Shown here: one piece after another, positions 2,136 to 58,365 of the stretch
How the letters are laid out: the number at the start of each line of letters is the position of its first letter
Position numbering within the stretch: the stretch's first letter is position 1
DNA from: Phormidesmis sp.
Lineage (GTDB): Bacteria; Cyanobacteriota; Cyanobacteriia; Leptolyngbyales; Leptolyngbyaceae
Reading direction: 5' to 3'
Assembly (NCBI GenBank): GCA_965248535.1
Contig: CBDFJR010000002.1
Location: 1,120,001-1,184,000 of the forward strand
DNA length: 64,000 bases
Notes under the pieces: model-generated
What the model was told of the DNA's origin: nothing
Seen by the model: only the letters and a program-made list of their open reading frames with translations
The model's database searches: none
Translations under genes and position numbers: made by a program

Positions 2136-2210
2136 GTCCGGGTAGCCAAATGGGAAGGCAGCAGTTTGCAAAACTACTCAGCAGGGGTTCGATTCCCCTC
2201 CCGGACTCCA
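2136..2210 (+). tRNA. trnC: tRNA-Cys(GCA), CCA encoded
   Basis: GTCCGGG/CCCGGAC acceptor, loop TT-GCA-AA, GTTCGA T-loop, U73, CCA. Confidence 0.85.
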
Positions 2211-2213
2211 AAA

Positions 2214-2287
2214 TGCAGTGTCCTGACGGTCAGGATCTCGGCTCATATCCGAGACGATTCGGGGTTCGAGTCCCCGCACTGCAACCA
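2214..2287 (+). tRNA. trnM: tRNA with CAT anticodon (Met, fMet or Ile2 not resolved), CCA encoded
   Basis: TGCAGTG/CACTGCA acceptor, CTCGG-CT-CAT-AT-CCGAG, atypical short D-arm. Confidence 0.75.
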
Positions 2288-2290
2288 CTC

Positions 2291-2364
2291 GTAGGGATGG
2301 TGTAACGGTAGCATTTCGATCTCCAAAATCGACGATTTGAGTTCAAATCTCAGTCCCTGCGCCA
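2291..2364 (+). tRNA. trnW: tRNA-Trp(CCA), CCA encoded
   Basis: GTAGGGA/TCCCTGC acceptor, TCGAT-CT-CCA-AA-ATCGA, G73. Confidence 0.85.
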
Positions 2365-2378
2365 ATCAAATTAGACAC

Positions 2379-2455
2379 GGTGCTGTAGGCAAATTGGTAA
2401 AGCCACAACGCTTTCAACGTTGCGTTTGCGGGTTCAACTCCCGTCAGCACTGCCA
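2379..2455 (+). tRNA. trnE: tRNA-Glu(TTC), CCA encoded
   Basis: GGTGCTG/CAGCACT acceptor, CAACG-CT-TTC-AA-CGTTG. Confidence 0.85.
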
Positions 2456-2579
2456 CATCGTTAGCTCGAATTTGGAGCGATCGCCATCGGCAAAGCAAAT
2501 CGTTTGCTAAACGAACACCTTCGGTGAAGCGAAGCTACCGGGGTTTATGCCTCTGTGGGTTCGACTCCCGCTCTCCACC
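2456..2579 (+). pseudogene. degenerate or chimeric tRNA-Ser(GCT) interrupted by a ~23-nt double-hairpin insert
   Basis: TCGT-TT-GCT-AA-ACGA anticodon arm, long variable arm, GTGGG-TTCGACT-CCCGC T arm, broken acceptor; insert at 2514-2536. Confidence 0.6.
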
Positions 2580-2580
2580 T

Positions 2581-2653
2581 GGGACTGTAGCTGAGTTGGT
2601 TTTAGCGTCAGGTTGAAGCCCTGAAGACGCGGGTTCGATTCCTGCCATTCCCA
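2581..2653 (+). tRNA. trnF: tRNA-Phe(GAA)
   Basis: GGGACTG/CATTCCC acceptor (one mismatch), TCAGG-TT-GAA-GC-CCTGA. Confidence 0.8.
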
Positions 2654-2674
2654 TCTCGATTGTTCGAGAATCAT

Positions 2675-2748
2675 TGCCGAGTGGACGAACTGATCAGTCG
2701 TTGTCATTCAGAGTGATAACGATGTTGGTTTGAATCCAACTTCGGCAT
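2675..2748 (+). tRNA. trnL: atypical tRNA-Leu(CAG) with short variable arm
   Basis: TGCCGAG/TTCGGCA acceptor, TGTCA-TT-CAG-AG-TGATA, T-loop TTTGAAT. Confidence 0.6.
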
Positions 2749-2756
2749 CTCGCCTT

Positions 2757-2827
2757 TGCCCTGTGGTGTAGTGGTAGCATTTCTCACTCTGAATGAGAAG
2801 AGTCAGGTTCAAATCCTGGCGGGGCAG
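2757..2827 (+). tRNA. trnQ: tRNA-Gln(CTG)
   Basis: TGCCCTG/CGGGGCA acceptor, TCTCA-CT-CTG-AA-TGAGA. Confidence 0.85.
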
Positions 2828-2885
2828 TCGGGAGGCATGAAATGTGATTGGGTCAACATTTCTATCCTCCTGTTCCTCATATTTA

Positions 2886-2959
2886 GGGTTCGTGGCTCTC
2901 ACAGGGAGAGTACTTGTTTTCCACACAAGAGATTGTGGGTTCAACTCCCACCGAATCCA
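2886..2959 (+). tRNA. trnG: tRNA-Gly(TCC)
   Basis: GGGTTCG/CGAATCC acceptor, CTTGT-TT-TCC-AC-ACAAG. Confidence 0.75.
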
Positions 2960-2961
2960 CT

Positions 2962-3038
2962 GTGACTGAACTCGAAGTCGTGGAGAGGCTGATTTGTGAA
3001 ATCAGTGTTAGCGAGTGCAACTCTCGTCAGTCACCCCA
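2962..3038 (+). tRNA. trnH: tRNA-His(GTG), atypical, CCA encoded
   Basis: GTGACTG/CAGTCAC acceptor, C73, CTGAT-TT-GTG-AA-ATCAG; T rather than G at -1; T-loop TGCAACT. Confidence 0.7.
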
Positions 3039-3048
3039 ACTAAGTTAT

Positions 3049-3131
3049 GGAAAGTATCGCTGAATGGTCGGCAACTCGTCTAGAAAACGAGGACTGGGTA
3101 ACACCTGGGGGTTCAATTCCTCTACTTTCCG
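3049..3131 (+). tRNA. trnS: tRNA-Ser with AGA anticodon
   Basis: GGAAAGT/ACTTTCC acceptor, G73, long variable arm, CTCGT-CT-AGA-AA-ACGAG. Confidence 0.75.
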
Positions 3132-4518: not shown

Positions 4519-4590
4519 TGGGGGTTACTGGACTTGAACCAGTGACATCTTGCTTGTCGAGCAAGCGCTCTACCACTGAGCTAAACCCCC
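4519..4590 (-). tRNA. trnV: tRNA-Val(GAC), housekeeping
   Basis: reverse complement GGGGGTTTAGCTCAGTGGTAGAGCGCTTGCTC-GAC-AAGCAAG...GTTCAAGTCCAGTAACCCCCA. Confidence 0.92.
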
Positions 4591-11577: not shown

Positions 11578-12543
11578 TCAAGCATCCAGTGGACTAATGA
11601 CACCTCGACTACCCCGATTGAGCACATGCGTATAAATCATTGTCGTTTTGACATCTTTGTGTCCTAGTAGTTCTTGCACCGTACGAATGTCGTAGCCATT
11701 TTGCAGCAAGTGAGTCGCAAAGGAATGACGGAAAGTATGACAGCCAATTCGCTTAGTTATTCTTGAAGCCCGAACTGCTTGCTTAAGAGCTTTCTGAAGC
11801 CCACTTTCATGCAGGTGAAAGCGTTGCCAGATGGTGGTATCTGGGTCTTGAACCCGACGACTAGAAGGAAAGATCCATTGCCAAATCCACTGCCGATCGG
11901 CGTTAGGATACTTACGTGCCAGAGCAAACGGTAGCCAAACCGAGCCGAATCCCTGGTCTAAATCCTGTTGATGCAGGGTCTTTGCTTGTTGGAGATGAGT
12001 TTGGAGATCGGCGATCAGGCGCTCTGGCAGCATCGTAACGCGAGCTTTCATCCCTTTAGCGTTACGCACCATAATTTGATGTTGGTCAAAATCTAAGTCT
12101 TTGATGCGTAGAGAAAGTGCTTCATTGAGACGCATTCCACTGCCATACAGCAGTTGAATTAATAGACGATAGGTGCCGTTCATTTGGGCAATCACCGATC
12201 GTACTTCCTGGGGTGTTAGAACTGTGGGCAAGTAGGTCGATCGTTTAGCCCGAACTGCTTGAATGTCAAAGTCTAGCGTTTGATTTAGCACATCACGATA
12301 GAGAAAAAGAATCGCGTTGAAGGCTTGATTCTGGGTTGAGGCAGCAACTTTGCCTTCTACTGCCAGATGTGTCAAGAATGCTTCAATTTCTGCTTGTCCC
12401 ATTTCCCGTGGATGTCGCTTGTTGTGAAAAGCAACGTATCGCTTAATCCACTGAACATAGCTTTTTTCAGTTTGATAGGAGTAATGCTTGAGTCGAATGG
12501 TGTCCCGCACCACTTCCGATAGCATCTTGGGACGTTCATTCAT
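11578..12543 (-). CDS. intI: integron integrase (tyrosine recombinase)
   Basis: [22 protein letters not shown]...TTMIYTH catalytic residues; integron-specific insert ([16 protein letters not shown]...WQWIFPS); [15 protein letters not shown]-terminus. Confidence 0.95.
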
Positions 12544-12613
12544 AAAAGTTTATAATTCTTCAACAAGATAATGAGTGTGATCTCATAGAATCAGAATATC
12601 TAATGAAAAGTGA

Positions 12614-12771
12614 GGGGAGATACACCGAAAGTTTCCGGGTATCTGCCCAAATCGGGGAGATATATAGAAAGTGTCGGGATATCTACCCAAATCAGGGAGA
12701 TATGCAGAAAGTGTCGGGGTATCTGCCTAAATCAGGGAGATATACGGAAACTTTCCGTATAATCAATAGTT
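12614..12771 (+). repeat. four tandem ~40-bp imperfect repeats ending in the candidate attI
   Basis: units at 12614, 12654, 12694 and 12734: RGGGAGATA-N4-GAAAGT..C.GG.TATCT.CC.AAATC, each with internal dyad symmetry. Confidence 0.85.
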
Positions 12772-12775
12772 CCAC
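12739..12775 (+). mobile_element. candidate attI site (crossover G/TT at 12769-12771)
   Basis: TATACGGAAACTTTCCGTATA palindrome, then ATCAATA-GTT; downstream GTTCCAC nearly complements R'' GTAGAAC of the first attC. Confidence 0.6.
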
Positions 12776-12827
12776 GAGAACTGGATATAAATGTTACCCA
12801 TTGGGAACACTACATCCACCCAGTTCC

Positions 12828-12941
12828 GTAGAACATTTCGTTGGAACCGACACGCTACAAATAGTCGTAAGGTTAACCGCACTACCAACTAAAGTTGGTG
12901 TTGCTTGATTGATTTGGTGCGGTTCAACTCAATCGTTATGC
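12828..12941 (+). mobile_element. attC site 1
   Basis: R'' GTAGAAC, L'' GTTG[G]AACCG, L' CGGTTCAAC, R' GTTATGC. Confidence 0.7.
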
Positions 12942-13215
12942 CGCCAGCCCGACAAGCAATCAATTCGGTCTTTCAGAGTTGTCGTTCAACCGAACATCAA
13001 CGGTATTGAGAACGGGTTAGTGAATACGAAAGTCAACGTAATGCATATAAGCGATCGCGCCGACTTATCGGTGTTGACTTTAGCAAAGATACTTCGTTGA
13101 GAGTGGGAGGTGACAGGTCGCATAGGATTTAAATCCGTCCGCGAATGCCGAATTCTTCGTCTTTTGAGATGTGCGGTCTGGCGAAGTTGCGAAGCGATCG
13201 GTTGAGACGAGCAAC

Positions 13216-14002
13216 GCATAATCGGGTAACCAGGGGATTTTCTCCCCCAGTCCCCACGGCACCCCGCGTGCGGCTCCGCACGGGGCGCGTCCCCAGAAAA
13301 GTTTTAGACAAGCCAGTTCAATAGAACTGAATATCCAGGGCTGGTTGTGCAGTTAAGCGCCGACAAAATAGCTCCCCCGTTCGGGTTCATCGCCCAGTCG
13401 AGCTTTGCAACTCCTCCCTGCTTTCTAAGGTTCAGCCCTTCACCCTGTCTCACCCATTACGGTGAGTGTTTGGCTACTATGACCTCTGCTGACTTCTGCT
13501 CAATCATGAGTCCTGTTGCCATGACTCACGCTGCCTGAATGTCCTTAGGGTTCCGTGGCTCCCTAGCCGTTTCCCGCTAGACCTCAATCAGACTCCCGTA
13601 GACCCTCAGACCGCCCTTTGAGCAGATCTCCCCAGATAAGAACGTGAACTGTCTCTGCACAACTGCGTCATTTACTGTGTTCCCTGAACCAAAAGGCTTC
13701 ATGATGTTGTGCTCACTTGCCACAGGAATCTCAGCCTTCTATGACGTTTCTGTCCGTCAGCTCGCAGATTTGCCGCTGGCTTCCTTCAGACCCTTCCTCG
13801 CGGAAACGCCCTTACCTTAAGCTAGTCGTTGTCGTCACTCGGATCTTTTGGGATCATTTGGACGTTGGTTCTCCGACAGGGGACTTTCACCCCATTAGTT
13901 CACACCCATGCTGGGCGTACACAACCCGATTGGAGCGGACTGTTGTCAGATCTGGGTGAGGCTGCAAAAATCATTTACAGCCGCTCAATCGGAACGTTAT
14001 GC
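13216..14002 (+). mobile_element. attC site 2, interrupted by group II intron copy A
   Basis: removing 13221-13920 restores GCATA|AC-AACCC-GATTG[G]AGCGG...CCGCTCAATC-GGAAC-GTTATGC. Confidence 0.9.
13221..13920 (-). mobile_element. ORF-less group IIC-attC intron, copy A (700 nt)
   Basis: minus strand starts GTACGCCCAGCATGGGTG; short IIC-type DV with CGC triad (CGCCCCGTGCGGAGCCGCACGCGGGGTG); DVI ending TTACCCGAT; inserted at TTGT/T of the attC bottom strand; DIV about 140 nt with no RT ORF. Confidence 0.9.
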
Positions 14003-14061
14003 CGCTCATCTCCTGGTGGGAACGCAGCCAGAAGCTAGTTTTTGGTGTTTAAGGTAAATAC

Positions 14062-14535
14062 ATGAACTTACAAAGCCTGAAGTGGACAAAGAACATAAAA
14101 CCAGCAGGACAAGAACCGTGGGCTTATCAGCCCTTTGAGGTTGGGAGTCTCTTTAAGTTGGCATGGAAAGATGATGAAGGTAACGCTAGCAAACCTCAAC
14201 GAGCAGACCTAATTTTGCTTAGACAGGGTGGTTATGTTACGCATCTTGTAGAAGTACTCGACGGAAAGACAGGGCGTGAAAAATGGCAAGGTAATTTCAA
14301 TATCTACCGAATTGTTGAAGTGCTCTGGGTAATTGATTGGACAAATCTGCCCATTTCTGCAAAAGCGGATGAGGTATTTGGATATTCGGTTAAAGGCTAT
14401 CAGGGCGGGGATGTGATGTTTTTGGAAACGATGCCCACTTTTCAGCAGCATTGGCAGAATCAGGGTGATTTAAGCGCATTTCAAGCGCATGTGCGGAGCC
14501 TGCTCAATCTGCCTGAAAGCGACGATAATGGATGA
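14062..14535 (+). CDS. cassette-borne hypothetical protein
   Basis: AAGGT SD, 157 aa, first gene of cassette 13997-15140. Confidence 0.75.
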   Translation: MNLQSLKWTKNIKPAGQEPWAYQPFEVGSLFKLAWKDDEGNASKPQRADLILLRQGGYVTHLVEVLDGKTGREKWQGNFNIYRIVEVLWVIDWTNLPISAKADEVFGYSVKGYQGGDVMFLETMPTFQQHWQNQGDLSAFQAHVRSLLNLPESDDNG

Positions 14536-14567
14536 AGTGTAGTTTTAATCTTCTGAGTGGGGTAGCG

Positions 14568-14786
14568 ATGACTGAGTTACTAGAGTGCGCTATTGCTAGG
14601 CTGCAAGCCTTGCCCGAAAGCGAACAGAACGCGATCGCTTCAATAATCTTGGATGAGATTAAAGACGATCGCCGCTGGGATGAAGCATTTTCGCGTTCGC
14701 CAGATATTCTTGCAAAACTTGCAGCTTCCGCAATGGCTGAGTACCGCGCAGGTAAGACTGAAGAACTTGACCCAGAGACATTGTGA
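14568..14786 (+). CDS. putative antitoxin
   Basis: small acidic MTELLE...; GTGA overlap with the downstream toxin. Confidence 0.7.
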   Translation: MTELLECAIARLQALPESEQNAIASIILDEIKDDRRWDEAFSRSPDILAKLAASAMAEYRAGKTEELDPETL

Positions 14787-15052
14787 AGTCACGCACTACT
14801 AAAGAGTTTCGTAAATTATTCGCCAAATTACCCAAACAGGTTCAAGAGCAAACCCGTACGGCATATCGTCAGTTTAAGGAAGACCCAAGCTACCCAGGTC
14901 TTCGTTTTAAGAAGGTGCATCCAGAGTTGCCAATTTACTCTGCTCGCATTAACAAAAGCTATCGAGCGGTAGGTCAATTGGATGAAGATACAGTGATTTG
15001 GTTTTGGGTTGGTTCACACGCAGAGTACGACAGGTTGCTAGAGCAGTTATAG
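14783..15052 (+). CDS. RelE/ParE-like toxin
   Basis: basic 89 aa; F..LP...DPSYPGLRFKKV...YRA...WFWVGSHAEYD. Confidence 0.75.
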   Translation: MKSRTTKEFRKLFAKLPKQVQEQTRTAYRQFKEDPSYPGLRFKKVHPELPIYSARINKSYRAVGQLDEDTVIWFWVGSHAEYDRLLEQL

Positions 15053-15059
15053 TAGCGCG

Positions 15060-15146
15060 GCATAACAATTCAAATGCAGCGGACGGTCGAGAGTCGCTGA
15101 CGCTGAGTTCAAGGGTATCTGCCGCCGCTGATTTGAGCCGTTATGC
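15060..15146 (+). mobile_element. attC site 3 (intact)
   Basis: GCATAAC-AATTC-AAAT[G]CAGCGG...CCGCTGATTTGA-GCC-GTTATGC. Confidence 0.9.
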
Positions 15147-15246
15147 GGCTTGCTTTGTTGGTTATGGCGGGGTTTAGAGGTGATCTGTGAGACGATTGAG
15201 CATCAGCGCGTTCAGGTTAACGAAGTGGTTGCTGAGGTTGAAATCA

Positions 15247-15519
15247 ATGCTTTATATGGTCATCGAGTATTTCAATGCAGGAGCGGCTGTTGATATTTAC
15301 CGTCGTGTCCGCGATCGGGGTCGTCAATTGCCACCCGGTCTTGAGTATGTAGACAGTTGGGTAGATTTAGACTATTTCCGGTGCTTCCAACTGATGCGAA
15401 CGGATGACCGAGACTTGTTCGAGGTTTGGATCGAAGCTTGGAGCGATCTCGGTCATTTTGAAATCATTCCAGTGAGGACTTCGGCAGAGGCTGCTCAACA
15501 TATTGCGGATAAACTCTAG
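15247..15519 (+). CDS. DUF3303-like protein
   Basis: MLYMVIEYF...GRQLPPGLEYVDSWV...RCFQLM...W.DL..FEIIPV. Confidence 0.65.
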   Translation: MLYMVIEYFNAGAAVDIYRRVRDRGRQLPPGLEYVDSWVDLDYFRCFQLMRTDDRDLFEVWIEAWSDLGHFEIIPVRTSAEAAQHIADKL

Positions 15520-15592
15520 AAGTATTCTCTGTCTGCGGCAGAAAGAGGTTTCGGTATAATGTTAGGTAGATATTTTTCCCTCATAGCCTTTT

Positions 15593-15817
15593 ATGAATTA
15601 TCAAGACATCATTACGATCGAGCCTGGAAAGCGCAGTGGCAAGCCATGTATTCGGGGAATGCGAATCACCGTGTACGATATCTTGGAATATCTGGCAGGT
15701 GGAATGACCGAAGCAGAAATTCTGGAAGATTTTTCTGAACTCACCTCAGAAGATATCAAAGCTTGTCTTGCTTTTGCGGCCGATCGTGAGAAGAAGTTGT
15801 TTGTGCCATCGCTGTGA
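15593..15817 (+). CDS. DUF433 antitoxin
   Basis: PGKRSGKPCIRGMRITVYDIL...EDIKACLAFAA. Confidence 0.85.
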   Translation: MNYQDIITIEPGKRSGKPCIRGMRITVYDILEYLAGGMTEAEILEDFSELTSEDIKACLAFAADREKKLFVPSL

Positions 15818-16146
15818 AACTGCTTTTGGATGAAAATCTCTCAGACCGGATTGTTTACAAGATTATCGATTTGTATCCTAGTTCTGAGCATGTCAAAACC
15901 TTGGCACTTACGAATACTGATGATGGCATCATTTGGCAATACGCAAAAGCAAATGACTTTGTGATTGTTTCCAAAGATTCTGACTTTCATCAGCGTAGTT
16001 TGCTGTATGGTCATCCACCCAAGTTTATTTATCTTCAGGTTGGTAATTGTCCAACATCAAAAATTATTCAGATTTTGAGAGACAATTTTGACACGATTAG
16101 TCAGTTTGGAGATCGAGAATCAGAAAGTATATTAGTGTTGGCGTAG
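15814..16146 (+). CDS. DUF5615 PIN-like toxin
   Basis: MKLLLDENLS...D..IW.YA...IVSKDSDF; GTGA overlap with the antitoxin. Confidence 0.85.
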   Translation: MKLLLDENLSDRIVYKIIDLYPSSEHVKTLALTNTDDGIIWQYAKANDFVIVSKDSDFHQRSLLYGHPPKFIYLQVGNCPTSKIIQILRDNFDTISQFGDRESESILVLA

Positions 16147-16158
16147 TGTGAAACCGCA

Positions 16159-16944
16159 GCATAATCGGGTAACCAGGGGATTTTCTCCCCCAGTCCCCAC
16201 GGCACCCCGCGTGCGGCTCCGCACGGGGCGCGTCCCCAGAAAAGTTTTAGACAAGCCAGTTCAATAGAACTGAATATCCAGGGCTGGTTGTGCAGTTAAG
16301 CGCCGACAAAATAGCTCCCCCGTTCGGGTTCATCGCCCAGTCGAGCTTTGCAACTCCTCCCTGCTTTCTAAGGTTCAGCCCTTCACCCTGTCTCACCCAT
16401 TACGGTGAGTGTTTGGCTACTATGACCTCTGCTGACTTCTGCTCAATCATGAGTCCTGTTGCCATGACTCACGCTGCCTGAATGTCCTTAGGGTTCCGTG
16501 GCTCCCTAGCCGTTTCCCGCTAGACCTCAATCAGACTCCCGTAGACCCTCAGACCGCCCTTTGAGCAGATCTCCCCAGATAAGAACGTGAACTGTCTCTG
16601 CACAACTGCGTCATTTACTGTGTTCCCTGAACCAAAAGGCTTCATGATGTTGTGCTCACTTGCCACAGGAATCTCAGCCTTCTATGACGTTTCTGTCCGT
16701 CAGCTCGCAGATTTGCCGCTGGCTTCCTTCAGACCCTTCCTCGCGGAAACGCCCTTACCTTAAGCTAGTCGTTGTCGTCACTCGGATCTTTTGGGATCAT
16801 TTGGACGTTGGTTCTCCGACAGGGGACTTTCACCCCATTAGTTCACACCCATGCTGGGCGTACACAACCCCAATGCAGCGGACGAACAGAATCTTCGCGC
16901 TTCGTTTTAATCATCTCTATCGCCGCTGATTGGGAACGTTAGCC
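16159..16944 (+). mobile_element. attC site 4, interrupted by group II intron copy B
   Basis: removing 16164-16863 restores GCATA|AC-AACCC-CAAT[G]CAGCGG...CCGCTGATTG-GGAAC-GTTAGCC. Confidence 0.9.
16164..16863 (-). mobile_element. ORF-less group IIC-attC intron, copy B (700 nt)
   Basis: appears identical to 13221-13920 (offset 2943 bp; overlapping spurious ORF translations match); same TTGT/T insertion point. Confidence 0.9.
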
Positions 16945-16951
16945 TGCTTCG

Positions 16952-17536
16952 TTGAGAGTTACAGCTTTCATTTGCATACTTTTAAGCTTCATGAATGATC
17001 GTCAATTAACCAAAGCCGATTTAATCGCACTTCTAAATTCATACCTACAGTTACTTCCACCTAGATATCAAAGCCTGCAAAGTCATATTAGTATCTACGT
17101 TACGCTTGTATCAGGAATCTTCGCGGTTACAGTAGCAGGTGTAAAGGACTTCAAAACTTTCCCAGTTAATATTTTTCTGCTAACTGATCCGATTCTTATC
17201 GTTATGTTGTCCCATTACGCAAAAGTGATAATTAGAAAACAGAACGCACACATCAAAGAATTAGTCGTTTTGACTGCGAAATTAGAATATCAGCTAGGAC
17301 TTTACGACAACTCTCAGGAAAGGACAGATCTGCTTGCTGATAAGCCTTGGTCAGAAGATGACAGTCTCCTCCCGCCAAAATGGGTAAACTCGCGCTTAAA
17401 AAGTGGCAAGAAATCAATAGAGTTTATCGAAGAGTTTCAGCCCAGCAGCTCCTCAACTTACTACAGCGTATTCAGCATTTTTCAGGGCATCGCGCTGATT
17501 CTTGCCGTGTTGATTATTATCTTTCCATTCATCTAA
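16952..17536 (+). CDS. cassette-borne hypothetical membrane protein (likely ATG at 16991)
   Basis: AT-rich ORF with 2-3 hydrophobic segments, first gene after attC4. Confidence 0.7.
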   Translation: MRVTAFICILLSFMNDRQLTKADLIALLNSYLQLLPPRYQSLQSHISIYVTLVSGIFAVTVAGVKDFKTFPVNIFLLTDPILIVMLSHYAKVIIRKQNAHIKELVVLTAKLEYQLGLYDNSQERTDLLADKPWSEDDSLLPPKWVNSRLKSGKKSIEFIEEFQPSSSSTYYSVFSIFQGIALILAVLIIIFPFI

Positions 17537-17612: not shown

Positions 17613-17819
17613 ATGAGGTTCAGCGTAACGCTTGATCGAGATGAAGATGGAGTTTGGGTTGTGGAGTGCCCTAGTATTCCGGGTTGCGTGAGTCAAGGTC
17701 AGACTAAACAAGAAGCTCTTGAAAACATCAAAGATGCGATCGCAGGTTGTCTACAGGTTCGGGCAGAGCGTGGAATGCCTCTGACTGTGGAAACCTACCA
17801 AGTTGAGGTCGTAGCCTAA
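17613..17819 (+). CDS. hicB: HicB-family antitoxin
   Basis: DEDGVWVVECPSIPGCVSQGQTKQEALENIKDAI. Confidence 0.85.
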   Translation: MRFSVTLDRDEDGVWVVECPSIPGCVSQGQTKQEALENIKDAIAGCLQVRAERGMPLTVETYQVEVVA

Positions 17820-30785: not shown

Positions 30786-32342
30786 CTAAAATGCAAACGT
30801 AGTCCGAATGACACCCACCACAATATCTTTATTGTCTTGATTATGGTTGGGGGCCGTTAACCAAATGATTCCGGGAGTGATTGAGATATTGTTATTTAAC
30901 GCATGGCGATAGAATCCCTCAATGTGCAGACCCGTATCACGATCGCGTCTCGCAGACAGCCCACTCAGCAGCGCCGTCGTGCCTGTGAGCTTAGGCTGCA
31001 TGCCGACAATAATCCCGCCTAGGTTTCCTTTTTGACCCAAATCTGGAAACGCCAGCGTCACCGCATAGTTCCAAACATCTCCATCACCGCGCACCGTTCC
31101 AGTTAACGCACGAGCCTTTGTGTAACCCACCCATCCACCTGCTTGCAACCCACTGCTGATTTTAAAATTGGCTTCAACGCCATAGGAGTTAGAAGCAACG
31201 GCTCGACCAGACAAATTAGACAAGAGGCTGCCTGTTCCTGTGTTTAGCCCGTTGTCACTATAGGCATTGACATAGGTGAGGGCGATCGTGCCAAATTTGG
31301 GCGTAAAAACCACTTGACCCAACGCCGCATAGTTGCCATTAAACAACCCCGCGCCCCGACCGGGACTGCTAGCTTCGTTGGCGAGATAGGCAACCTCCAA
31401 CTTTAAAGCTGAACTCAGCTTGATATTGGCAGATCCGCCCGTGTCAAAACCTAAGCGATAAATGGGATTGTAGCGCCCAAAGCGAGAAATGCTGGCCTGT
31501 GCATCACTGGCTAGCGGGTTGATGATATCGTCGAGCACGTCAATAAAGCCAATATTAAAGCCTGTGGCCGCCGTCAATTTAACGCTTTTATTCAGAGGAA
31601 AGCTGTATTTGAGCAGGCTGAGAAATCCGGCGTTTGACGTGTCGCTGCCTGACTGAAAACTGAGCCGAGCTTCGTTACCAGGAGCCGTATTGGTCGTTGA
31701 ACGAGGATCAATAACGTTAGTAGCTTGAATGCGCGTGGTGAGCAGGTCTTTGCCTGTGAAGCTCGTGTTTAAATTGAGCCGAACGCGATCGGACACGGTG
31801 GCATTATAGTTATCATCTTGACCATTGCGACTTGCGCCTCCAAAGGCATCGGTGACGGCAAAGATCACCTGCCCACTGAGTTTAGTCGTGGTCGAAAATT
31901 GCTGTCGTTCTAAGGTGGTTGTTCGCGCTTCTAAACCATCTACTCGTCCCCTTAAGGTGGCTAACTCTGCTGCAAATTCTGCTTGCAGCTTTTGCAGTGT
32001 GGCTAAATCTTCTTTTTTGACTAACTCTGTGGTTGCGGCCGCGATGAGTTCATTAACGCGATCGAGACACGCATTCAGTCCGGCGGCAAATTCATAGCGC
32101 GTTAACGCCCGGTTGCCTCGATAGGTTTTGTCGGGGTAGCCTGCAATGCAGCCATACCGTTCGACTAGCGATTGCAAAGCCTGAAATGCCCAATCAGTCG
32201 GCTTTACATCCGAAAGCTGCGAGACCGAAGTCACTTGCTCGATCTCGATTGGATTGGGTTGCGTCTCGGTTTCTAATGGTTGAGCGATCGCTGGAGTGGC
32301 TACTAAAATAAACGCTGGAAACAATGACCACCCAATTTTCAT
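30786..32342 (-). CDS. cyanobacterial SLH-domain OprB-type porin
   Basis: QVTSVSQLSDVKPTDWAFQALQSLVERYGC, QFSTTTKL, C-terminal RTTFAF. Confidence 0.9.
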   Translation of the reverse strand: MKIGWSLFPAFILVATPAIAQPLETETQPNPIEIEQVTSVSQLSDVKPTDWAFQALQSLVERYGCIAGYPDKTYRGNRALTRYEFAAGLNACLDRVNELIAAATTELVKKEDLATLQKLQAEFAAELATLRGRVDGLEARTTTLERQQFSTTTKLSGQVIFAVTDAFGGASRNGQDDNYNATVSDRVRLNLNTSFTGKDLLTTRIQATNVIDPRSTTNTAPGNEARLSFQSGSDTSNAGFLSLLKYSFPLNKSVKLTAATGFNIGFIDVLDDIINPLASDAQASISRFGRYNPIYRLGFDTGGSANIKLSSALKLEVAYLANEASSPGRGAGLFNGNYAALGQVVFTPKFGTIALTYVNAYSDNGLNTGTGSLLSNLSGRAVASNSYGVEANFKISSGLQAGGWVGYTKARALTGTVRGDGDVWNYAVTLAFPDLGQKGNLGGIIVGMQPKLTGTTALLSGLSARRDRDTGLHIEGFYRHALNNNISITPGIIWLTAPNHNQDNKDIVVGVIRTTFAF

Positions 32343-56385: not shown

Positions 56386-58365
56386 CTAGAAACTAAACTG
56401 AGTTCGCAGGCTGCCCACAAAAACCGTGGGATTGCTGCTGAAGTTGTTGGCGTTGAAAATGGTGTAGAACGTCGGCACCACGGCAATGTGAGGATTGAGC
56501 GGATAGAAGTAAGAGGCTTCTAGCTCATATTGCGTGCCGCCATCGCCCGCCCCAGACGCAAAATAAGTGCGCCCCTTGGTGATATCCATCGGCATCAAGA
56601 AGGTGAGGGTGCCCAGCGCGCCTTTCTTGCCCAAGTCAGGAAAGCCAACCCCCACTTGGAAAGACTGAGTTCTCACCTTTTGGTCGATCGGGTTGAGCTT
56701 TGTGGTGGCAAAACTATAGCGCCCAAACACCCCAAACCCCGGCTTTAGCATCCAGTCGAAGTTAACCCCAAACATATCAGCAGTGGCATATTTCAGCCCC
56801 CCACCGACGACCCCATTTGAGAAGCCGGGCCCGGCATCTAAATAGCCGTAGGGAATCGGTTCTCCGATCGCGCCCCCCACTTGCCCCCCATAGGCTTGAA
56901 TCCGAGTGCGGTTATATTGCAGCCGTAGGTTAATGGTGCGAGTGGGCGAGAAAGTCAGCTCGGCTGAGGCGGTGTTAGTGCCGCCAAATAGACCAAACTT
57001 TGGATTGCTGGAGGTGTTGTAGCCAAACTCAGACGGCAAGAATTCGGTGTTTTCGCCCAGATAACCAACGGTCAGGCGAAACTGCTTGCTGAGAGTGACA
57101 TCGATCACCGCCCCTGACCCGCGATCGACCGCATTTGACTGAGCGCTGTTGGAGGTATCGAAACTGGCTCCTGAGTTAAAGACAAAGTTAAAGCGGTTGG
57201 AATCAAAGTGACGATACCAGTTGATGCGGGGCCCGACGGTCACCTTCACCGCATTGTTGAGCGGAAAGCTATAGAAAAGATCGTGAATCACCACATCAGG
57301 GACACCATTGTTGGTGCCGCCTGATTGGTCGAGAAACGGCACCCCCGCCGAGTTAAAAAAGCCAGCCGACGCATATTGGTTATAGGGAGAAACGCCGTTT
57401 CCAGCCGCCAACTGCGTCACCAACTGATCTTTGCCCGTGAAGGAGGTTGAAAGCGTCAGCCAAGTTAAAAAGCTCTCGGTGATATTAGGGTCTTTAGCCG
57501 TCAGAACCGTGGGTCTGCCCGTGATCGGACTGCGGGTTGCAAAGAACCGTCCGAGAGCATCGCCTTCGCTGCCTGCCGGGCCTTCAAATCGCACTCCTCT
57601 GCTGGCGGTTGCCCCTGTGACGTTGATCCAAACGCTGCCAAACAGCTTGGTGGTGGTTGAAAACTGCTGCTTTTCGAGGGTGGTGGTGCGCGCTTCGAGG
57701 ACATCGACGCGACCACGCAAAGTGGCTAGCTCGGCCGCAAATTCTTCTTGCAGCTTTTGCAGGGTAACTAAATCTTCTTTTTTAACGAGATTGGCGGTGG
57801 AGGCAGCAATTAACTCGTTGACGCGATCGAGACACGCATTCAGCCCGGCCGCAAACTCATAGCGGGTCAGCGCCCGATTGCCGCGATAGGTCTTGTCGGG
57901 GTAGCCCGCAATGCAGCCATAGCGCTCAACCAGCGATTGCAATGCCTGAAAGGCCCAGTCTGTGGGTTTAACATCTGTTAGCTGCGAGACTGAGGTGACT
58001 TGCGCCAATGCCGCATCAGCATCGGCTTCGGGCTTTTCAAAGTCTGCTACATTCTCTACTGAGTCTAAGCTGAGACGGGTGTCAAGGCTAGTCTGAGCCG
58101 GGGTTTTCTGGGCGATCACAATCGCTCGGTTTTCAACCGCCAAGGGGACAGCAGGAACAGCAGCCACCTGGTGAGAAGACAACTCGACGCTTTTCAAGTT
58201 AAGGGCTGCGGGGGGTGAAACTGCCGGGGAAGTCGTCGCGAGTTTCAGGGGGTTTGGAGCCGATTCTGCTCGACCGATGAGTTGAGAGTTGACCCCGTAG
58301 AGCACTGTCCACGCGATCGGAGACAGCAGTAGAGACTTCCACATCTTGGACTGGCTAAACATCAC
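56386..58365 (-). CDS. cyanobacterial SLH-domain OprB-type porin
   Basis: same SLH/coiled-coil block as 30786-32342; C-terminal RTQFSF. Confidence 0.9.
   Translation of the reverse strand: MMFSQSKMWKSLLLSPIAWTVLYGVNSQLIGRAESAPNPLKLATTSPAVSPPAALNLKSVELSSHQVAAVPAVPLAVENRAIVIAQKTPAQTSLDTRLSLDSVENVADFEKPEADADAALAQVTSVSQLTDVKPTDWAFQALQSLVERYGCIAGYPDKTYRGNRALTRYEFAAGLNACLDRVNELIAASTANLVKKEDLVTLQKLQEEFAAELATLRGRVDVLEARTTTLEKQQFSTTTKLFGSVWINVTGATASRGVRFEGPAGSEGDALGRFFATRSPITGRPTVLTAKDPNITESFLTWLTLSTSFTGKDQLVTQLAAGNGVSPYNQYASAGFFNSAGVPFLDQSGGTNNGVPDVVIHDLFYSFPLNNAVKVTVGPRINWYRHFDSNRFNFVFNSGASFDTSNSAQSNAVDRGSGAVIDVTLSKQFRLTVGYLGENTEFLPSEFGYNTSSNPKFGLFGGTNTASAELTFSPTRTINLRLQYNRTRIQAYGGQVGGAIGEPIPYGYLDAGPGFSNGVVGGGLKYATADMFGVNFDWMLKPGFGVFGRYSFATTKLNPIDQKVRTQSFQVGVGFPDLGKKGALGTLTFLMPMDITKGRTYFASGAGDGGTQYELEASYFYPLNPHIAVVPTFYTIFNANNFSSNPTVFVGSLRTQFSF

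Follow-up and report, generated by a model that had tools for sequence, protein, structure and literature searches.

An intron without an open reading frame in the integron cassettes of a Phormidesmis genome: a probable non-autonomous group IIC-attC retroelement

Within a 64,000-nucleotide (nt) stretch of the genome of the cyanobacterium Phormidesmis sp. (GenBank assembly GCA_965248535.1, contig CBDFJR010000002.1, positions 1,120,001 to 1,184,000; hereafter the window, whose coordinates are used below unless a genome or contig is named), an integron carries two identical introns of the group IIC-attC kind that lack an open reading frame (ORF). We think it likely that this element is a non-autonomous group IIC-attC retroelement, copied by the reverse transcriptase (RT) of a related intron that was supplied in trans, and that it has gone through a recent burst. 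The source genome (G000; 5.03 Mb, 5 contigs, 99.76% complete) is cyanobacterial, with both PsaA and PsaB present.

Results

Two identical introns without an ORF

Copy A (13221..13920) and copy B (16164..16863) both lie on the minus strand, and a pairwise alignment with 100-nt flanks found them identical at 700/700 nt. Shared sequence extends past the introns only through the conserved attC core, which adds GGGTTGT (7 nt) before the 5' end and TATGC (5 nt) beyond the 3' end. Outside this core the flanks of the two copies diverge, so they are not a tandem duplication; an assembly artefact is also ruled out, the element occupying eight sites with unique flanks on two large contigs. An earlier note on this DNA, made by reading the letters alone, had described a 700-nt minus-strand element that occurs twice in copies identical by eye, splits R'' of two different attC sites at the same base, antisense to integron cassettes, and has a group II fold with a shortened IIC-type domain V (DV) bearing a CGC triad, a domain VI (DVI) ending in ACCCGAU, an ACAA as candidate exon-binding site 1 (EBS1) and no RT ORF. 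Alignment, covariance models and frame searches bore out this description.

The multi-domain group II fold is recognised by three Rfam covariance models, all above their gathering scores. RF02001 (127.8 bits) and RF01998 (63.7 bits) match both copies, and RF00029, which covers DV and DVI, reaches 43.5 bits (cut-off 40) at 13221-13290 in copy A (in a rescan at an E-value threshold) and at 16164-16233 in copy B (in the whole-genome search). The intron begins with GUACG, at 13920 in copy A, a variant of the GUGYG-like 5' consensus of group II introns, and ends with ..ACCCGAU at 13221, in agreement with the AY 3' end of such introns. In domain I (DI), the loop GCACAACA (13705..13712, minus strand) contains the candidate EBS1 (ACAA, 13707-13710), complementary to the TTGT of the 5' exon; the loop is unchanged in 11 of 12 diverse aligned family members and reads GCACACCA in the remaining one. 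DV (13259..13288, minus strand) is 30 nt long, 4 nt shorter than the 34-nt consensus of the Rfam alignment and shortened in the manner of IIC introns, with its CGC triad at 13285-13287 and a 2-nt bulge (AC). DVI (13224..13257, minus strand) has an unpaired A at 13227, 7 nt from the 3' end, in keeping with the bulged branch-point A of group II introns.

No RT frame is present in the element, the biggest open frames on its two strands being 58-80 amino acids (aa) long. What is left of domain IV (DIV) is a remnant of about 140 nt (13291..13434, minus strand) that comprises a Shine-Dalgarno (SD)-like region, the start of the gene for the intron-encoded protein (IEP), a deletion junction and the 3' tail of the ORF. 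The length and the SD-like sequence GGGAGGAG (13411-13418) are as the earlier note gave them, but the start codon is not the TTG adjoining GGGAGGAG that was proposed there: it is the ATG at 13388-13390, from which the frame reads MNPNGG as compared with MNPDGG in a related IEP. Comparison with a full-length relative shows that the tail around the stop codon (..GCGCTTAA..) has been kept as well. A sigma-70 scan, which is uninformative for cyanobacterial promoters, found no promoter-like site inside the intron, and four in 12500-17100 against 5.4 expected.

attC sites as targets

The integron integrase gene intI (321 aa; 11578..12543, minus strand) scores 466 bits with TIGR02249 against a cut-off of 265. 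Its cassettes lie downstream on the plus strand and include genes for a ParE-like toxin, a DUF3303 protein and a DUF5615 protein, and their attC sites have the usual layout R''-L''...L'-R'. The introns are antisense to the cassettes, and in the bottom strand they cut R'' of different attC sites between GT and TATGC (..TTGT|TATGC). The attC of cassette 1 is thereby divided into a part 5' of copy A that holds R', L', L'' and the first GT of R'' (13921..14009, minus strand; 72.6 bits) and the rest of R'' (TATGC) at 13216-13220, and that of cassette 3 into a part 5' of copy B (16864..16951, minus strand; 64.2 bits) and the TATGC at 16159-16163. Between them, the attC of cassette 2 (15061..15153, minus strand; 81 bits) is uninterrupted and offers a perfect ..TTGT|TATGC that is empty; two of the three strong attC sites next to intI in the window array are thus occupied. 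These scores come from an attC covariance model (R1) that was built on the attC half, mostly from occupied sites, and all three sequences belonged to its training set.

With R1 at E <= 0.01, G000 has 44 attC sites (9 of the 44 matches being training sequences), distributed over two integrons and several integrase-less clusters; the second intI is at C2:161487. Eight of the 44 hold an intron, seven of these being ORF-less and one full-length, and the eighth ORF-less copy sits in a degenerate attC site missed by R1. In all eight ORF-less cases, as with the full-length intron, the sequence before the insertion is an attC-type bottom strand of the form ..YTAACG..AGCGGCGG..GTCCGC..NNGT|intron|T... 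The survey was extended by 25 loci: one more copy in G000 and 24 loci of other genomes, among them one that appears under two ids. In two the 5' end is missing, and 20 of the other 23 fit the attC pattern, with NNGT before the intron and T after it.

Across the loci with the attC pattern, the intron-binding site 1 (IBS1) reads TTGT, GTGT, TAGT or ATGT. As the EBS1 loop is constant while IBS1 varies, the EBS1-IBS1 pairing would be short (2-4 bp). Class C introns insert directly after or within a hairpin by means of a short IBS1 plus IBS3; the element conforms to this, standing after the attC hairpin where 3-4 nt match ACAA and +1 is a T. PMC7923331 likewise describes IIC-attC introns as antisense to the cassettes and inserted in the bottom strand of attC, with a TTGT/T consensus, and a setting between integron cassettes is that of the introns described in the relevant passages of PMC7923331 and PMC8876359.

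A family member in a Leptolyngbyaceae metagenome-assembled genome (MAG; locus L074) stands after a long non-attC hairpin that is followed by a T-run, TTTTGTGT. This site suggests that the lineage accepts hairpins other than attC as well, which has also been reported of IIC-attC introns.

Copies in the genome and spread across genera

Both copies seen in the window by the earlier note are real, but they are two of eight ORF-less copies in G000, six of them identical, on two large contigs. A genome search with the element returned ten matches: six at 100% over 700 nt, a further copy at 98.6% (L007, whose first base is altered and which has small deletions), single matches at 84.9% and at 79% (the latter over positions 1-447 only) and a 130-nt fragment. 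The fragment (L010, G000:C2:378132-378261) runs from the end of domain III (DIII) to the DIV junction, with an attC-like site (C2:377171) some 900 nt away.

Of 61 related genomes, G000 counted, 22 contain relatives of the element. In G010, a near-complete assembly from another genus, there are nine full copies with 86-87% identity to the element, plus fragments, and these nine differ from one another by only 0-4 nt. In all ORF-less copies from several genera the DIV deletion junction, ATGAACCCGRAYGGGGGAGC..GTCGGCGCTTAA, is identical: the IEP start (ATG AAC CCG RAY GGG GGA GC) continues for a few bases and is then joined to the final bases of the ORF around the stop codon. An exact-pattern scan located this junction at 11 cyanobacterial loci, in Oculatella, Kovacikia, Stenomitos, Pantanalinema, two Leptolyngbya species and MAGs, and the ORF-less form is found in the Leptolyngbyaceae and the Oculatellaceae. 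One junction common to all ORF-less copies points to a single ancestral deletion. A tree of DI-DIII is compatible with a single origin, the ORF-less copies grouping with two full-length introns at an unresolved node. In the same tree the 85% copy of G000 pairs with a copy from a different organism, which indicates that two sub-lineages coexist in G000. These sequence comparisons indicate that the ORF-less form is an old lineage common to several genera and not a local accident.

At two loci, L017 (G007:C509) and L079 (Leptolyngbya sp. Cla-17), an ORF-less copy is itself interrupted directly after the DV hairpin by another group II intron, which starts with GTGCG and encodes a 546-aa IEP, 30-33% identical to the IIC-attC type. 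The arrangement looks like a twintron in which DV may have served as the hairpin target.

Conservation of the fold

RNAalifold, applied to 12 diverse ORF-less family members, gave a structure in which 97.4% of the cells are paired. Compensatory changes occur in 61 of its 208 pairs, as against 33.5+-3.4 in shuffled alignments (none of 500 reached the observed number) and 8-16 with slid partners. DV (helix 36) contributes 12 pairs, two of them with a compensatory change, and DVI (helix 37) contributes 13 pairs, five of them with such a change. The DIV helices vary least, with 17 of the 22 pairs in helices 27 and 29-31 constant. Judged by these patterns, the ribozyme fold and the DIVa region appear to be maintained by selection across genera, and the invariance of DIV around the SD sequence and the ATG is what would be expected if a binding site for an IEP had been preserved. 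In other group II introns, DIVa is where the IEP binds with high affinity, as set out in the part of PMC2882425 that concerns it.

It is improbable, in our view, that the element is kept for the benefit of the integron or the host. Such a benefit could lie in the immobilisation of cassettes through the split R'', or in identical copies acting as recombination handles that join genes to attC, along the lines of the cassette-formation model of Leon and Roy, as PMC7923331 summarises it. The occupancy of 8 of 44 attC-like sites, including two of the three strong ones next to intI, and the location of L074 after a non-attC hairpin with a T-run would suit this explanation, but the present data show no advantage, the sigma-70 scan found no outward promoter in the element, and selfish retroelement behaviour suffices to account for the conservation of ribozyme and DIVa.

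Possible source of a helper protein

A full-length intron with an RT elsewhere in the genome was what the earlier note had proposed looking for, and the whole-genome search did find one, L013 (G000:C2:1673018-1675015; 1998 nt), but its IEP gene is broken. L013 sits in an attC site, is 79% identical to the element in DI-DIII, and holds the sole GIIM domain and the sole group II-type RT of G000. The cassette that hosts it and cassette 1 of the window are paralogues: the body of cassette 1 (12942..13220, plus strand) is 89% identical to the DNA adjoining L013 (G000:C2:1675016-1675291) and 86% identical to a third paralogue, which stands beside an uninterrupted attC-like site (C2:2140389-2140603).

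The IEPs of related introns (447-457 aa) consist of RT and X domains (RVT_1 and GIIM; TIGR04416 397 bits) and have no endonuclease (En)/HNH domain; the En-less IEP of class C introns is accordingly a property of the ORF-containing relatives only. The best plasmid matches to the IEP of the intact relatives are ltrA genes, at 53% identity, and one plasmid record that we inspected has two such ltrA genes antisense between class 1 integron cassettes.

Several findings weigh against mobilisation in trans, or at least against its continuing today, and most of them concern the helper. The L013 IEP is a pseudogene, in which comparison with intact homologues reveals an imperfect tandem duplication of about 79 nt, whose first repeat carries 3 extra nt and whose second has deletions of 3 and 5 nt. 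Moreover, L013 falls in another, well-supported clade of the DI-DIII ribozyme tree, and its DIVa stem-loop is unlike that of the ORF-less copies. Profile searches of G000 (99.76% complete, 5 contigs) returned two matches to PF00078, one to PF08388 and three to TIGR04416; together with the RF00029 matches, they resolve to the broken IEP, a retron-type RT and an RT-less 3' fragment of an En-containing intron, and no intact group II IEP was found. A hidden helper in G000 is thereby ruled out, the second RT being of the retron type, and so is the extra DV/DVI match at G000:C5:1439336 as a helper, since it belongs to the RT-less fragment with an HNH remnant. This fragment (C5:1439000-1439412; L084 ~2750-3113) derives from a different group II intron and consists of an HNH-like remnant followed by DV and DVI (RF00029 45.9 bits), with neither RT nor DI-DIV.

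The picture is similar beyond G000. We surveyed 90 genomes of the host family, many of which are draft assemblies in which repeats assemble poorly, and in which kin are not independent of one another. The C-terminal 329 aa of the IEP have matches in 21 of the 90 at E <= 1e-60, and apparently intact IEPs of the cognate type occur in only five (G018, G035, G102, G074 and G016); the other matches carry stops, frameshifts or truncations or are distant relatives (38-46% identity). A 260-nt probe for the 3' part of the ORF-less intron, from the end of DIII to the 3' end, matched in 15 of the 90, spanning the junction in 12. An ORF-less copy and an intact cognate IEP were found together only in G035. 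This distribution of helper and dependant would fit boom-and-bust dynamics. When ten full-length relatives were inspected, an intact IEP frame of 447-457 aa was present in three, and all ten carried the other type of DIVa, so that no autonomous parent with the ORF-less type of DIVa was found among them; on this comparison the ORF-less DIVa looks derived.

In G010, the cognate IEP lies in two pieces about 9 kb apart (G010:C1:2201130-2211016; L056, L068), with an in-frame TGA, and ORF-less copies stand on both sides (2197868, 2212091). The gene appears to have been split by something large that inserted into it.

The remaining points on this side concern the target and the RNA. Of the loci in the target survey that depart from the attC pattern, two copies stand after unrelated hairpins and one has a degenerate flank, and EBS1 showed no covariation with the variable IBS1 across the loci compared. 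The sequencing runs provide assembled contigs, which carry no strand, level or RNA ends. Joints that omit exactly 13221-13920 are present in a single run of unknown kind, where the flanks are about 95% identical, and in a single metatranscriptome contig, where the figure is about 93%. Since their flanks differ by 5-7% from those of the window, these joints are not evidence of splicing and could represent empty allelic or paralogous sites; as one paralogous cassette in G000 stands next to an attC-like site that has no insertion, they are most simply empty sites in paralogues or relatives; as such they would fit clean presence or absence of the element at the intron ends. Intron-like contigs occur in two ice metatranscriptomes and do not show transcription, and no evidence of transcription or splicing was obtained from the contigs of these runs.

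The earlier note had proposed recent retrohoming with an IEP supplied in trans. Identical copies in unrelated attC sites agree with the first part of this claim; the helper itself is inferred, and the one IEP gene of the cognate type is broken and belongs to an intron from another ribozyme clade. The G000 copies are probably stranded now, given the state of that gene, and for the same reason the scenario of fossils that the earlier note had allowed for keeps some standing as regards the present day. According to it, the copies were inserted while a helper existed and have been inert since, their identity reflecting recency or gene conversion among 700-nt repeats. Past trans-mobilisation is common ground between this explanation and ours, which differ only on activity today. 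No intact IEP in G000, the lack of an intact cognate IEP in most genomes with ORF-less copies, and the existence of decayed copies (L007 and L010) are all in keeping with immobile fossils. We nevertheless consider them unlikely, because six copies have zero differences over 700 nt, with identity that ends exactly at the intron ends in unrelated flanks, the copies in G010 show a star-like spread, and the fold and DIVa seem to have been kept by selection across genera.

Recent bursts in two near-complete genomes with a broken cognate IEP, G000 and G010, might also be explained by movement independent of any IEP, in which the intron reverse-splices by itself into single-stranded attC and is copied by another polymerase, such as the retron-type RT present in G000 or a host DNA polymerase. 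The near-invariance of DIVa argues for binding by a cognate protein, and the IEP may have been lost either before or after the burst. To our knowledge, there is no precedent for the mobility of a group II intron without a group II IEP, and we regard this explanation as extremely improbable.

Other features of the window

Several cassette genes resemble toxin-antitoxin pairs: an 84-aa frame with the ParE-like toxin (14532-15052), a 74-aa frame with the DUF5615 gene (15593-16146), and a HicB-like antitoxin (17613-17819). Between intI and the first weak attC-like site (12833-12948), 12614-12773 contains a 40-nt unit repeated in tandem three to four times, each repeat forming a small hairpin (GGGGAGATAC..GTATCTGCCC..), and a 101-aa frame with no family match runs across them; the repeats may represent a first cassette without an ORF or else belong to attI. 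Farther away, six tRNA genes are clustered at 2136-2959 (plus strand), one further tRNA gene lies at 4519-4590 (minus strand), and a pair of 300-nt direct repeats with 80% identity is located at 31879-32178 and 57644-57943.

Discussion

The element appears to be, by descent, an ORF-less member of the IIC-attC kind, which without an RT of its own behaves like the trans-mobilised ORF-less introns of Thermosynechococcus while being aimed at attC. With IIC-attC introns of the S.ma.I2 type (Quiroga 2008; Leon & Roy 2009/2010), as these are summarised in PMC7923331 and PMC3001079, it shares antisense, bottom-strand insertion at TTGT/T in integrons and in clusters of attC sites lacking integron integrases (CALINs). 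The small IIC-like ribozyme with a short DV is also common to both, and the full-length cyanobacterial relatives have En-less RT/X proteins 53% identical to the ltrA genes between the cassettes of a class 1 integron. In contrast to the described members, all of which have an RT/maturase ORF, the element has none and measures 700 nt as compared with ~1.9-2.0 kb; it is also multi-copy (8 per genome), resides in cyanobacterial chromosomes and forms a multi-genus lineage of its own.

The parallel with TeI3 of Thermosynechococcus elongatus concerns the way of life. The account of TeI3 in Mohr et al. (2010; PMC2882425) describes 17 ORF-less introns, seven of them identical, that stem from a single deletion and are mobilised by driver IEPs. 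Both systems are cyanobacterial. In each, one ancestral deletion left remnants of the N- and C-terminal ends of the ORF, DIVa is modified, identical copies occur in sets and ORF-less copies outnumber the ORF-containing ones, and each is explained by a model in which a driver IEP mobilises the introns in trans. TeI3, however, as presented there, belongs to another class, uses sequence-defined sites and has intact, experimentally active IEPs in the same genome, whereas the present element is of the IIC-attC kind, with a structured recombination site as its target, a multi-genus lineage and a local helper gene that is dead. In the section of review PMC4424553 on bacterial ORF-less group II introns, these are said to be rare (few in 225 genomes) and usually accompanied by a related IEP. 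Like the introns from the 2008 study covered there, the element is ORF-less and has a related intron in the same genome. Compared with the rarity reported in that section, the numbers of 15 of 90 family genomes with the 3'-part probe (12 junction-spanning), and of at least nine full copies in the richest genome, are high. Full-text searches of the literature returned no description of an ORF-less IIC-attC intron.

The course of events that we consider likely is as follows. One old internal deletion would have taken nearly the whole RT/maturase gene out of DIV and spared the ribozyme (DI-DIII, DV and DVI), the Shine-Dalgarno and start-codon region of DIVa, and the final bases of the ORF. With transcription running antisense to the cassettes, the element would be spliced with the aid of an IEP from a related ORF-containing intron, and the resulting ribonucleoprotein would reverse-splice into single-stranded attC bottom strands. 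The attC hairpin, 3-4 bp of EBS1-IBS1 pairing (ACAA with TTGT) and the T at +1 would together direct it to the position between GT and TATGC of R'', after which the IEP would copy the inserted intron into DNA. In G000, a recent burst of this kind would have produced the six identical copies and one decayed copy, next to the 85%-identical sub-lineage. Present-day activity in G000 is doubtful, because the helper gene is dead. Insertion into R'' may lock the cassettes concerned, and intron copies may play a role in cassette formation.

Going further, we put forward only tentatively that the ORF-less element has long existed as a hyperparasite, exploiting both IIC-attC introns and integrons. It might spread between cyanobacterial genera on cassettes, outnumber and outlast the helpers that encode an RT, and perhaps help drive them extinct, while its many identical copies at attC sites, and now and then at other hairpins, could provide homologous handles for new cassettes, as in the Leon-Roy model, at the same time as they freeze existing arrays.

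Reviews regard ORF-less group II introns of bacteria as both rare and short-lived. We see here a derivative without a gene that has lasted across genera, with its ribozyme fold and its putative protein-binding region kept, and that occupies about one in five of the detectable attC sites in a genome whose helper is dead. It offers a natural system for studying how helpers and non-autonomous retroelements cycle in bacteria, how introns may freeze integron cassettes and how intron copies may take part in the formation of new ones, and represents a naturally minimised IIC ribozyme that appears to be aimed at a structured single-stranded DNA target.

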